This document shows positions 29,065-34,287 of a stretch of DNA of 64,000 bases, one piece after another. The position numbers and the translations under genes are program-made. The stretch is from Paracoccaceae bacterium. GTDB taxonomy: Bacteria; Pseudomonadota; Alphaproteobacteria; Rhodobacterales; Rhodobacteraceae. The stretch lies in NCBI GenBank assembly GCA_965247915.1, contig OZ252048.1, positions 2,859,740 through 2,923,739 on the forward strand, written 5' to 3'. Positions within the stretch are counted from its first letter, which is position 1. Each line of letters starts with the position of its first letter. The notes below the pieces were generated by a model. That model worked only from the letters and a program-made list of their open reading frames with translations, did not search any database and had not been told where the DNA came from.

Positions 29065-32000
29065 TTGGTTGGAACATACGGGAAACATTTCAGTGAGCCT
29101 TTGAAATCTAGTGAATCCTTTGACTTAGTGGCGACTGGGGGAGGAATTGCAGGACGGGTTTTGGAAGACGATGTATTCCCGAAAGCGTCGAGTTCAGATG
29201 CACTCATCAAGAGATGCGTGTCGATTGATCTTGAGGTCGATCCAAAGACAAACAGGATTCAAAGATTTGCGGGTGTCCGCAATGGCTTGGATCGGACGTT
29301 TGTGTACCGGCGCGGCGACTTGGCGCAGGCGCTCCACTCGCTGGATCAATTTGCTGAGACCGCTGAATTTGTTCTCGCTCATAATCTAATCAACTTCGAT
29401 GCGCGCCAACTGGAGCTTGCAAAGCCCGATCTTCAACTTCTCAAGAAACCGATGATCGACACCCTTTGGCTTAACCCGCTTGCTTTTCCTCGAAACCCAT
29501 ACCACCACCTTGTGAAGCATTATCAAGACGGACGTCTGCAGACCGGCCACGTCAATGATCCCGAACTTGATGCCGAGCTTGTCCTGACGGTGTTAAGCAA
29601 CCAGATCGAGGCACTAGCCGGGATCGAAAAAGCTGATCCTGAGGTTATTCGAGCCTACCACTATCTCACAACAGTGCGATCTGATCATTCAGGCTTTGAT
29701 GCGGTTTTCGCTCATGTCCGTGGCGCTAAGCGACCGACTGCAGCTGATGCGCAAGCAGCCATTAGAGACCTCCTTCGAGAGCTTGCATGTGTACATCAAA
29801 TCGAAACCGTGATCCCAGAAGCCGAACACGATGGTTGGCCACTAGCGTACGCATTATCCTGGATCTCAGTCGCCGGTGGAGACTCGGTAATGCCTCCCTG
29901 GGTGCGACATCGGTTTCCCGGCGCAAGCCAACTGATAGGACGGCTACGGGATACTCCGTGTACGGATCCAATGTGCGCGTGGTGTCGCGCCCAGAATGAT
30001 CCGCGGGCTCTCCTCAAGACGTGGTTTGGATTTGATGGATTTCGACAAAAACCGGCTGGATCGGATGGACGTCCCCTCCAAGAGGCGATTGTGTCCTTGG
30101 CCATGGGCAAATCGCCCGTGCTGGGAATTTTGCCGACAGGTACTGGTAAGTCTGTTTGCTACCAATTGCCCGCGCTTGGACAGTTTCATAGGACCGGAGC
30201 CCTCACGGTTGTCATTTCTCCGCTTGTTGCCCTTATGGCTGACCAGGTCGAGGGAATGCGGCAACAGGGCATCACGTCGTGCGTGACCGTCAACGGTATG
30301 CTTTCTCTTCCGGAGCGTCATGACGCGCTGGACCAAGTCAGATTGGGTGAGGCTGCTTTACTGCTCATTTCTCCCGAGCAGTTAAGAAGCCCCTCTGTTC
30401 GCTCTATCCTGAAGCAACGAGAAGTAGGATACTGGGTGCTTGACGAAGCCCACTGTGTTTCAAAATGGGGGCACGATTTCCGCCCGGATTACCGATACGT
30501 CGCCCGGTTCATAAAAGAATACTCTGGCGATGGTCCTCCAGCCCCCTTGATTTGCCTCACGGCAACTGCCAAGCCGAGTGTAATCCAAGACATCACAGAG
30601 CATTTCATCACGAAGCTTGGAGTGGCTCTTGAGCTTATTGACGGCGGTGCTTTGCGGGAGAACCTCTCATTTGAGGTCATCCCGACAGATAAAGGCAAAA
30701 AGCTCGGCGACATTTTATCGGTGCTTGAACGCGCATTGCCCAGGGTAGGGTCCTCGGGAGCGATCGTGTACTGCTCTTCCCGAAGGGCTACCGAGCGCGT
30801 CGCGGACTTCTTGAAAGAAAGAGGGTTTGCCGCAGCATACTACCATGCTGGATTGAAACCCGACGAAAAGACGGTCGTGCAGCAACAGTTTGCGAACGGC
30901 GATCTTCGGGTCATTGCCGCAACGAATGCGTTCGGAATGGGGATCGACAAATCGGATATACGCCTAGTCATCCACGGTGACATCCCGGGTTCCTTGGAAA
31001 ACTACGTGCAAGAGGCCGGCCGTGCGGGGCGGGACCATGAAGATGCTCGGTGCATCCTGCTTTTCAGTCAGGATGACATCGAGCGGCAATTTAGCCTCTC
31101 GGCGCGGTCGCGTCTCACCAAACGAGAGATTTCTGCGATCTTAAAATCGCTCAGACGGCTGGATAGAAGATCAAAACAAAAAGGAGAGGTGATCGCAACG
31201 CCCGGAGAGATCGTCAAAGAGGAACTGGACCATGATTTTGAGCGGGACAGTACCACTGACGACACACGAGTAAAGACTGCTGTTTCGTGGCTTGAAGAGG
31301 CTGTGCTTCTGAAACGGGAGGAAAACCGAGTGCGCGTTTATCCATCCTCGCTTCGCGTCCGAACGCTGGACGAAGCTAAAAAGCTCATCGACGCAGCGTA
31401 CGGATCCGATGGATACCGATTAAAGCTTCTCTCTTTAGTGCGAAGTTTGATTAGTGCACCACCCGACAAAGGCATTTCAACAGACGAGTTATGCGGACAG
31501 GCTGGATTTTCTCCGGGGCAACTCAGAAAAGCCCTAAATGACCTTGAAGCATTGGGTGTCGCTTCGAACGACACAGCGATTACTATCTTCGTTCACATCG
31601 GGGTTGAAGATTCTTCGAAAAAGCGGCTCGTCGACGCGGCTGGCCTAGAACACGATCTGATCGCCAAGTTGCGCGAGTTTGCGCCCGATCTAGAGCTCGA
31701 AAACGCAGCAACGCTGAATTTGAAGATCGCCTCGCAAGAACTGCGAGACATGGGTCATACAACAGTTCGACCAGATATTGTAGATCGCCTGGTGCGCGGC
31801 ATCGCAAGGGATGGGCGAGATGAGGCCCACGGTGTCGGCAGTCTTCAAATTCGGAAAATCGACCGGGAGCATCTTTCGCTACGATTGCAACGAAATTGGG
31901 ACAAGCTTGCTCTGACCGCAGATCTCCGGCGCAAAGCTGGCAGTGTTTTACTTTCTTCCTTACTCGCGGCCGCACCAAAGCAATCACGCGGCAAAGATAT

Positions 32001-34287: not shown

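Follow-up and report, generated by a model that had tools for sequence, protein, structure and literature searches.

We examined a stretch of 64,000 nucleotides (hereafter the window; positions 2,859,740 to 2,923,739 of contig OZ252048.1, GenBank assembly GCA_965247915.1) from a Paracoccaceae bacterium, and focused on a gene whose product combines, in one chain, a predicted DnaQ-like (DEDD) 3'-5' exonuclease-fold domain with a RecQ-type superfamily 2 (SF2) and a UvrD/Rep/PcrA-type superfamily 1A (SF1A) helicase core. A previous sequence-only reading of this DNA had reported a single open reading frame (ORF) of 1740 amino acids (aa), and one open frame is indeed present at 29065-34287. The frame and the parts of its product are as follows; residues are numbered throughout in the frame of the 29065 ORF, as in that reading.

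29065 to 34287, forward strand: maximal ORF, 1740 codons plus stop
29161 to 34287, forward strand: probable coding sequence (CDS), TTG start, 1708 aa, with GGAGGA at 29140-29145
29200 to 29574, forward strand: DnaQ-like (DEDD) 3'-5' exonuclease-fold domain, residues ~46-170, predicted from the AlphaFold2 (AF2) model, Foldseek and invariant residues
29575 to 29994, forward strand: helical four-cysteine domain, residues ~171-310, from the AF2 model and alignment
29995 to 31119, forward strand: RecQ-type SF2 helicase core, residues ~311-685, from Pfam, NCBIfam, PADLOC and motifs
31120 to 32439, forward strand: conserved linker, residues ~686-1125, from the AF2 model, Foldseek and weak profile matches
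32440 to 33864, forward strand: UvrD/Rep/PcrA-type SF1A helicase core, residues ~1126-1600, from Pfam, NCBIfam, PADLOC and motifs
33946 to 34284, forward strand: C-terminal domain, residues ~1628-1740, from alignments

The ORF is real and intact, as the frame has no interruption over 5.1 kb and can be aligned with homologues along its whole length. Conservation was assessed in a set of 27 sequences, comprising the window protein and 26 full-length homologues from fetched loci, that reached down to 27% identity and covered several phyla. The active-site residues of all three modules were invariant in this set, and the key residues of the three catalytic-type modules are, judged from the alignment, under purifying selection across phyla. 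A second copy of the gene, on metagenome contig L006, encodes an identical protein; the ratio of non-synonymous to synonymous substitution between the two copies was uninformative because their coding sequences are identical.

The start codon is probably the TTG at 29161, which would leave the first 32 codons of the maximal frame untranslated. This start was favoured because of a 14-bp indel, the unconserved residues 1-32, the common length of 1708 aa and the upstream GGAGGA. The indel (29153-29166) distinguishes the window from the otherwise identical L006 copy and disrupts the frame that opens at 29065, in which the first 32 codons sit; residues 1-32 showed no conservation among homologues, and 1708 aa was the most frequent homologue length. 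The start has to lie before residues 46-54, since these are conserved in homologues; a GTG at 29218 is an alternative start, and a gene caller chose it for P0001, a protein of the same sequence. The indel is bordered by a GACG direct repeat and is one of two differences between the window and L006 over 5.57 kb, the other being a 1-bp indel downstream of the gene, while the CDS from 29167 on is 100% identical. Both alleles keep an in-frame TTG about 19-20 codons before V52 (29161 in the window, the TTG at 29147 in L006), and the start codon appears, from this comparison, to have been moved by slippage with the protein retained.

Both helicase motors, which the sequence-only reading had called complete on the basis of their motifs, were borne out by profile searches and by invariance of those motifs. 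The RecQ core matched the Pfam domains DEAD (residues 337-509, 1.8e-29) and Helicase_C (residues 563-657, 1.1e-21), and scored 299 bits with the RecQ-family NCBIfam model TIGR00614 recQ_fam (cut-off 219.8). It carries motif 0, GTGKS (K362), DEAH (460-463) and QEAGRAGRD, all invariant, so that both its score and its motifs place it in the RecQ family of SF2. Orthology to bacterial RecQ was not supported: the recQ equivalog TIGR01389 scored 343 against a cut-off of 640.2, with a match that ended at model position 344 of 591, i.e. at the helicase core, and canonical RQC and HRDC domains were not detected by sequence in Pfam (including a permissive search) or NCBIfam. The best PADLOC models on this core were DpdF (364 bits) and PsyrT (300 bits), which covered the helicase core alone (positions 27-379 of 689 in the PsyrT model). 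The second motor matched UvrD-helicase (PF00580; 141 bits, 6.5e-41) and UvrD_C (PF13361; 57 bits), both above their cut-offs, as well as AAA_19 and UvrD_C_2. It contains GSGKT (K1153), DEYQD (1270-1274), VGDDDQNIY and YVAMTRAR, of which K1153, DEYQD, GDDDQNIY and VAMTRAR were invariant, and its two UvrD domains together with the Walker A, DExQD, motif III and motif VI elements assign it to the UvrD/Rep/PcrA (SF1A) group. It did not reach equivalog level for UvrD, Rep, PcrA, HelD or AddA/RecB (uvrD 164 against 1144, pcrA 166 against 911), and the PADLOC GajB models matched part of this core. The arginine fingers, like K362, DEAH, K1153 and DEYQD, were invariant.

The same profile hidden Markov model (HMM) searches that supported the RecQ and UvrD modules gave no Pfam match for the exonuclease module proposed by the sequence-only reading: the first 312 residues matched nothing in Pfam even at E<=10, and nothing relevant to the N-terminal domain was retrieved from the PDB by phmmer or by a 39-sequence profile. 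The fold was recovered by structure prediction. An AF2 model of residues 40-335, built on the family alignment A1, had a mean predicted local distance difference test score (pLDDT) of 87.6 and a predicted template-modelling (TM) score of 0.85. In a Foldseek search of this model against the PDB the top-listed matches were predominantly DnaQ-like 3'-5' exonuclease domains or polymerases containing one, including E. coli Pol II, T7 DNA polymerase, TREX1 and its homologues, S. aureus DinG and family B polymerases. The probability was ~1.0 and E ~3e-3, with query-normalised TM-scores of 0.27-0.36, low because the model also spans the second, helical domain.

The residues D55, E57, H106, D112, D132, H147, K151, P166 and D169 were invariant in all 27 sequences, while N107 and Y146 deviated in one sequence each. 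The putative acidic tetrad of the ExoI (DxE), ExoII (D) and ExoIII (D) motifs corresponds to D55, E57, D112 and D169, and the invariance of these acidic residues suggests that the domain binds metal. The exonuclease module was therefore upheld in its fold and in D55, E57, H106, D112 and D169, not in any Pfam or PDB sequence match. Its previously noted H-x4-D motif did not survive: the position five residues before D169 is Asn164 (Asn in 25 of the 27 sequences, Ser in two) and His162 is not conserved, and assignment to the DEDDh class is unsupported because H-x4-D is absent. The Tyr of DEDDy enzymes is absent as well, with Asp, Asn or His at position -4. An hhalign comparison with one canonical DnaQ-like exonuclease paired N164-x4-D169 with its H-x4-D, although this alignment was not significant (probability 0.36). 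On the predicted structure and the alignment, the domain is a DEDD fold with a full acidic tetrad that is neither DEDDh nor DEDDy.

The stretch N-P-Y-H-x-L-V-K-H-Y at residues 144-153 (nucleotides ~29494-29523) is among the most conserved in the protein. Its C-terminal part falls in residues 150-158, the sole low-confidence loop of the model (pLDDT <50), and the stretch may make contacts to DNA or to some other domain, or its His147 may stand in for the absent general base. The helical domain that follows, at residues ~171-310 upstream of the RecQ core, has four invariant cysteines (C242, C299, C304, C307), which likely form a putative zinc site.

The remaining parts of the protein, previously noted as a linker of about 450 aa and an unassigned tail of about 130 aa, were confirmed at ~440 and ~130 aa, both without Pfam matches. 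The linker is well conserved within the family and gave weak profile matches to DtxR/MntR-type winged helix-turn-helix domains. Its AF2 model (pLDDT 73) consists of repeated helix-helix-helix-strand-strand units followed by a helical bundle, and the high-probability Foldseek matches were winged-helix proteins only (the Cdt1 C-terminus, PadR, RTP, MarR), with weak E-values; no enzymatic fold was found by profile or by AF2 and Foldseek. The C-terminal ~110 aa are present family-wide and are the least conserved part of the protein, with no invariant residue in a 25-sequence alignment, no catalytic signature and no credible PDB match for the 25-sequence profile. Some roseobacter homologues bear a further C-terminal extension of 115-290 aa (P0008, P0013, P0015 and P0017, of 1999 aa; P0007, P0012 and P0014, of 1825 aa). 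The 1999-aa homologues carry precomputed zf-dskA_traR Pfam matches, P0008 also HTH_24, and the extensions of loci L001 (15040-15478) and L010 have in common the motif '...W.E....L...GLE..P+GGGLVL...'.

The whole protein was not described by any model in Pfam, NCBIfam or PADLOC-DB v2.0.0, and no description of an exonuclease-RecQ-UvrD fusion was found in a full-text literature search that covered few subscription journals, in agreement with the previous statement that no characterised family was recognised in it. Homologues were nevertheless abundant. An HMM search with the N-terminal domain yielded 1,663 clusters at 50% identity, 511 of them at E<=1e-30, and every full-length protein among the matches listed had this domain at its N-terminus in a chain of ~1,670-1,890 aa. 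A second homologue search with the N-domain as query returned short fragments at >=49% identity and no new architectures. Full-length homologues of ~1,600-1,750 aa occurred in many phyla and often on megaplasmids; they were found in Alpha- and Gammaproteobacteria, Cyanobacteria, Bacteroidota, Clostridia, Fibrobacter, Verrucomicrobia, Chloroflexota, Nitrospirota and Desulfobacterales. Many close full-length relatives belonged to Rhodobacterales and Hyphomicrobiales (58-81% identical among the matches listed), and many homologues were located on megaplasmids or chromids of Rhizobiales and Rhodobacterales. Their names were "RecQ family ATP-dependent DNA helicase" or "helicase", and nothing more specific. 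A scan of GTDB species genomes added Pseudomonadales, Methylobacter, Verrucomicrobiia, Caldilineaceae, Nitrospirales, Acidimicrobiaceae, Desulfobacterales, Clostridia, Bacilli and Fibrobacter; it was dominated by generic RecQ peptide patterns, with ~24 of 80 loci belonging to the true family, and the remainder were reused as a recQ control.

By tblastn we found 25 plasmid records with a full-length copy, among them records of Allochromatium, Thiothrix, Nostoc, Scytonema, Calothrix, Bacteroides and Phocaeicola at 30-41% identity, and none of 50,697 phage records contained one. Horizontal transfer is indicated because identity to metagenome-assembled genomes of Chloroflexota, Nitrospirota and Actinomycetota was 53-57%, across phyla, and the gene moves between genomes as a single unit. 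On the Nostoc punctiforme plasmid pNPUN02 (locus L090, 6749-11767) the homologue is split into three CDS, annotated 'RecQ family helicase', 'UvrD-helicase domain protein' and '3'-5' exonuclease', and is probably a frameshifted pseudogene. We rejected the last of these labels, assigned by the Prokaryotic Genome Annotation Pipeline, as support for the exonuclease, since it covers a C-terminal fragment of the UvrD core and not the DEDD domain.

To describe gene neighbourhoods, we clustered the ORFs within 10 kb of the gene at 26 diverse loci and in the window. No family was common to more than three loci, and hence there is no conserved partner, in keeping with the sequence-only reading that the gene stands alone. 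The alternative raised with it, a housekeeping gene in core synteny, is disfavoured by the lack of conserved synteny and the patchy distribution. Defence or toxin-antitoxin (TA) genes lay within 10 kb in ~9-10 of the 12 contexts inspected, a small sample of 11 homologous loci and the window. The contexts included the following.

Silicimonas (L001): McrBC plus HNH, with H-NS upstream
Sinorhizobium medicae: PglX, PglZ and BrxL (BREX)
Contig L006: type ISP-like methylase, ParD and Gp49
Allochromatium plasmid: type I restriction-modification plus HNH
Cereibacter plasmid (L009): RES-family toxins, BrnT and H-NS
Nostoc punctiforme: N6-methylase plus helicase
Thiothrix plasmid: type I-D CRISPR-Cas
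Rhizobium ruizarguesonis plasmid: HipBA
Scytonema plasmid: helicase/PLD cluster
Tritonibacter: full-length candidate PDC-S37/Hhe-like protein

IetA was also found among the neighbours of homologues. The H-NS-family genes lie just upstream of the homologue (8897-9226 in Silicimonas; 5445-5843 and 7803-8201 in Cereibacter), consistent with xenogeneic silencing of horizontally acquired DNA. At E<=1e-10, 201 PADLOC models were matched by 137 neighbours of family members (three on each side) and 10 by the 125 that flank ordinary recQ genes found in the GTDB scan, figures that count models and not proteins or loci. The repeated defence and TA neighbours and this comparison point towards a defence-island setting of homologues; the heterogeneous contexts, the housekeeping neighbours and the Bacteroidales and Clostridiales loci without matches point away from one.

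In the window the gene lies between insertion sequences (ISs), on both sides as previously claimed. These, and the DNA shared with L006, are as follows.

26251 to 29029, forward strand: IS21-family remnant, with the 3' part of istA (26251-26653 and 27955-28174, split by the IS3), istB (28171-28902) and terminal repeats to ~29029
26654 to 27954, reverse strand: IS3-family IS, left copy, with orfA (27607-27873) and orfB (26714-27580), inside the IS21 istA and with a 4-bp GTTC target duplication
29030 to 34596, forward strand: DNA in common with metagenome contig L006, at 99.7% identity; nothing else of the window is shared at the gene
34595 to 35895, forward strand: IS3-family IS, right copy, in inverted orientation to the left one and 100% identical with it, without a clean target duplication

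The right end of the IS21 is directly upstream of the gene, ~130 bp before the probable start, and the right IS3 begins 308 bp downstream. In L006 the gene is likewise abutted on both sides by ISs, different from those of the window; in the window it survives as a 5.6-kb island amid insertion sequences. The right IS3 has CGAC as inner and ACTA as outer flank, and the DNA shared with L006 stops exactly at its edge, which suggests an IS-mediated deletion or rearrangement beside the gene. A composite transposon was considered and rejected: it is not demonstrable because GTTC and ACTA, at the outer flanks, differ, and the left copy has its own GTTC duplication within istA. A promoter search returned a single weak promoter-like site, which spans the IS21 end.

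We rank surveillance of foreign DNA as the likeliest function because the gene is mobile as a single gene, has no partner and has neighbours biased towards defence. The window gene would accordingly be an intact member of a widespread family of autonomous, horizontally mobile helicase-nucleases that survey foreign DNA, a reading that we hold with moderate confidence. On what substrate the protein acts, how its modules cooperate and what its defence role is, we infer as follows. Its loading sites would be 3' ends, nicks, gaps or forks in foreign DNA that is entering the cell or being replicated, with the winged-helix array and the variable C-terminal domain serving in loading and in recognition of DNA structure or target. 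RecQ and UvrD/Rep/PcrA helicases translocate 3'->5' on single-stranded DNA, and two motors of the same polarity would unwind either in tandem on one strand or, starting at a nick or bubble, outward along opposite strands. The released 3'-ended strand would then be passed to the N-terminal exonuclease site and degraded or held, so that the target is destroyed or unable to replicate. We also put forward, tentatively and as the less probable proposal, that the family represents a novel class of immune or genome-surveillance machines encoded by one gene, in which same-polarity SF2 and SF1A motors on a winged-helix tether act on opposite strands to open DNA bidirectionally from a nick, gap or fork, or reel in loops, and feed the 3' strand to an atypical DEDD exonuclease using the Asn or the remote His147. 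Such a bidirectional-opening or loop-reeling mechanism is without characterised precedent among helicase-nucleases.

Several observations weigh against foreign-DNA surveillance. The canonical general base is missing from the N-domain (Asn164 instead of His or Tyr) and no exonuclease sequence profile matches it, its Foldseek E-values are modest and its TM-scores low, and from its sequence the domain may be a weak nuclease or a module that merely binds 3' ends. The neighbour comparison, being a count of models, was also made on crudely called ORFs; by Pfam, many of the neighbours have plain housekeeping functions (gyrB, ftsH, ATP synthase), and PADLOC matched none of the large neighbours tested in the loci of Bacteroidales, Clostridiales and Fibrobacter. 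An analogy with RecBCD is not directly transferable, because a pair of 3'->5' motors placed on opposite strands cannot enter together from the same duplex end. Finally, expression in the window is uncertain because the IS21 cuts the native upstream region to ~130 bp.

Part of this evidence would suit an accessory enzyme of DNA repair or replication restart without any immunity role, in which a WRN-like unit and a Rep/UvrD-like motor act on stalled forks, R-loops and protein roadblocks of secondary replicons or chromosomes. Both motors come from repair helicase families, Rep and UvrD are accessory replicative helicases, and the many homologues on rhizobial and rhodobacterial megaplasmids or chromids, the housekeeping neighbours and the Bacteroidales and Clostridiales members whose tested large neighbours lack defence matches all fit such a role. 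We nonetheless consider it unlikely, given the patchy distribution with 53-57% identity across phyla, which is horizontal and not vertical, the lack of conserved synteny, the bias of PADLOC matches relative to true recQ loci, the H-NS-type silencer genes upstream in two loci, and scores far under the RecQ, UvrD, Rep and PcrA equivalog cut-offs. A service to the carrier mobile element and not to host anti-phage defence, whether in maintaining a plasmid or an integrative and conjugative element, handling transferred single-stranded DNA, excluding competing plasmids or counteracting restriction, is somewhat less credible still. Several of the 25 plasmids with a full-length copy are conjugative or mobilizable; the Scytonema copy, on a plasmid typed conjugative, adjoins a region with an FtsK/SpoIIIE gene; the window itself has a ParA/VirC1 gene and many insertion sequences; and zf-dskA_traR and HTH_24 occur in the C-terminal extension of some homologues. 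Set against this, 198 of 245 matching plasmid records (partial matches included) were typed non-mobilizable, many copies are chromosomal, no relaxase or type IV secretion gene recurs beside the gene, and anti-plasmid exclusion is itself a form of defence.

The atypical N-domain raises the further question of whether it is a working nuclease at all. If it were not, the protein could be a helicase-only sensor or toxin like the genotoxic RecQ-like PsyrT/RqlH, which would harm cell or invader by uncontrolled unwinding or ATP use when triggered; Asn164 in place of the catalytic His or Tyr, the missing exonuclease profile match and the PsyrT score on the RecQ core point that way. We think this improbable, since four acidic residues together with H106 and H147 are invariant to 27% identity, which is hard to square with a dead site, and no antitoxin-like partner is conserved. 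Of the window copy alone it might be said that it is a silent or decaying passenger between insertion sequences that has lost its promoter, as the adjacent IS21 end with the lone weak promoter-like site across it, and the downstream IS3 without target duplication, would allow. The fully open frame aligning end to end with homologues, the CDS shared without change with a second contig that has other flanks, and the intact catalytic residues make this very improbable indeed.

Compared with known systems, the family protein resembles eukaryotic WRN, the Werner syndrome protein, in layout. In WRN a DEDD exonuclease is coupled with a RecQ motor, and the family protein likewise has a predicted N-terminal DEDD-superfamily 3'-5' exonuclease fold, then a RecQ-type core in the same chain, with winged-helix modules downstream of the motor. 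Unlike the family protein, which has Asn at the His/Tyr position, WRN is DEDDy; it has a canonical RQC zinc/winged-helix unit and HRDC, neither of which was detected by sequence in the family protein, and it lacks a UvrD-type second motor. WRN is moreover a vertically inherited eukaryotic repair gene and the family a horizontally moving bacterial singleton, so that the likeness is architectural only. We know of no other prokaryotic WRN-like exonuclease-RecQ fusion. S. aureus DinG, whose structure was among the Foldseek matches, also has a DnaQ-like exonuclease domain N-terminal to an SF2 helicase; that helicase is of XPD/DinG type and not RecQ type, and DinG has no SF1 motor and is much smaller. 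UvrD acts with DEDDh exonucleases (ExoI, ExoX) in mismatch repair, excising nicked strands, and an SF1A motor with all signature motifs joined to a DEDD fold is a one-chain counterpart of this methyl-directed mismatch-repair excision. The family differs from UvrD, Rep and PcrA in scoring far below their equivalogs, in its short 1B and 2B regions, unrelated C-terminal domain and fused second motor, and its genes lie outside mismatch-repair or nucleotide-excision-repair gene contexts.

Phage DNA is restricted by helicase-nuclease proteins such as Gabija, Hachiman, Nhi, Hna and RecBCD. With Nhi, Hna, Hhe, Gabija GajAB and Hachiman HamAB the family has in common a helicase motor with a nuclease, here a predicted one, a patchy, horizontally transferred distribution and frequent proximity to defence genes. 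It differs from them in that its nuclease is a predicted DEDD fold and not PD-(D/E)xK, TOPRIM/OLD, Vsr or PLD, in its two motors from different superfamilies, and in having no GajA or HamA partner and no full-length PADLOC match. Gabija was considered as a candidate and rejected, as the GajB models cover part of the UvrD core, no GajA-like gene occurs in the window and no partner recurs at the 26 loci. RecBCD and AddAB are likewise multi-motor helicase-nucleases, which destroy linear DNA and act as a phage barrier. In RecBCD, the 3'->5' RecB and the 5'->3' RecD travel the same way along the duplex, whereas both family motors are of 3'->5' families and the geometry is therefore different; the family protein also has another nuclease fold than RecBCD and AddAB and no Chi-recognition subunit. 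DpdF, from the 7-deazaguanine system Dpd, and PsyrT/RqlH are indicated by the best PADLOC matches of the RecQ core. The Dpd system was rejected (NF041063 scored 203 against a cut-off of 550, and no dpd genes flank the gene), as were PsyrTA and RqlHI, where the match is limited to the helicase core and no PsyrA or RqlI partner is nearby or conserved. The family plausibly belongs with the helicase-nuclease proteins of defence islands, with an unusual and mechanistically interesting domain combination.

If active, the protein would bring into one chain exonuclease, RecQ and UvrD activities that normally reside in separate proteins of fork processing, mismatch repair and RecF-pathway resection. 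As a natural, hard-wired pair, it would join SF1 and SF2 motors, whose cooperation could be tested in a single protein. The family is broad, with ~1,660 clusters spread over many phyla; rhizobial and roseobacter megaplasmids and gut Bacteroidales are among its carriers, and it is overlooked by genome annotations and by PADLOC-DB v2.0.0 because it is named only "RecQ family helicase". Should the defence role be true, it would be an additional single-gene system with an unusual effector.

As for the other contents of the window, the previously reported BREX debris was not found: the single tblastn match to PglX, PglZ, BrxL and a type ISP enzyme fell on an IstB-like ATPase, in its Walker-A stretch (18-80). 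At 45991-48222 on the reverse strand, 12 kb from the fusion gene, a complete RecD2-type SF1B helicase is encoded (OB_YrrC, HHH_RecD2, AAA_30, SH3_13, UvrD_C_2); the ORFs on the opposite strand (47005-48504 and 48195-49520) have no Pfam match and are probably spurious. A HigB(Gp49)-like toxin (117 aa) and a Cro/C1-type HTH protein (97 aa) are encoded at 41315-41958 on the reverse strand, with 86% DNA identity to the pair in L006. The ParA/VirC1 gene is at 42473-43150. Further insertion sequences were found at 700-1638, 15620-16621, 25110-26111, 37730-39729, 43475-44251, 44660-45805, 49936-50709 and 53575-54777, and comprise IS1595, several near-identical DDE_Tnp_1 (IS5-like) elements, an rve-type IS and Mutator-family transposases. 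From its IS density and the ParA/VirC1 gene, the window has the appearance of a plasmid segment or of a section of a highly plastic island.

Finally, the window contains three related adhesin-like genes interspersed with insertion sequences, all on the reverse strand. The ORF at 5898-13748 (2616 aa) has Calx-beta and LapA matches and a C-terminal autotransporter beta-domain, and is probably a repeat-rich adhesin. Its repeat array (7697-13550) consists of 17 tandem units of 345 nucleotides that are 98% alike, which suggests recent expansion or gene conversion and may make the array prone to assembly error. The other two, at 16704-24632 (2642 aa) and 3601-5499 (632 aa), encode autotransporter-type surface proteins with fibronectin type III repeats.

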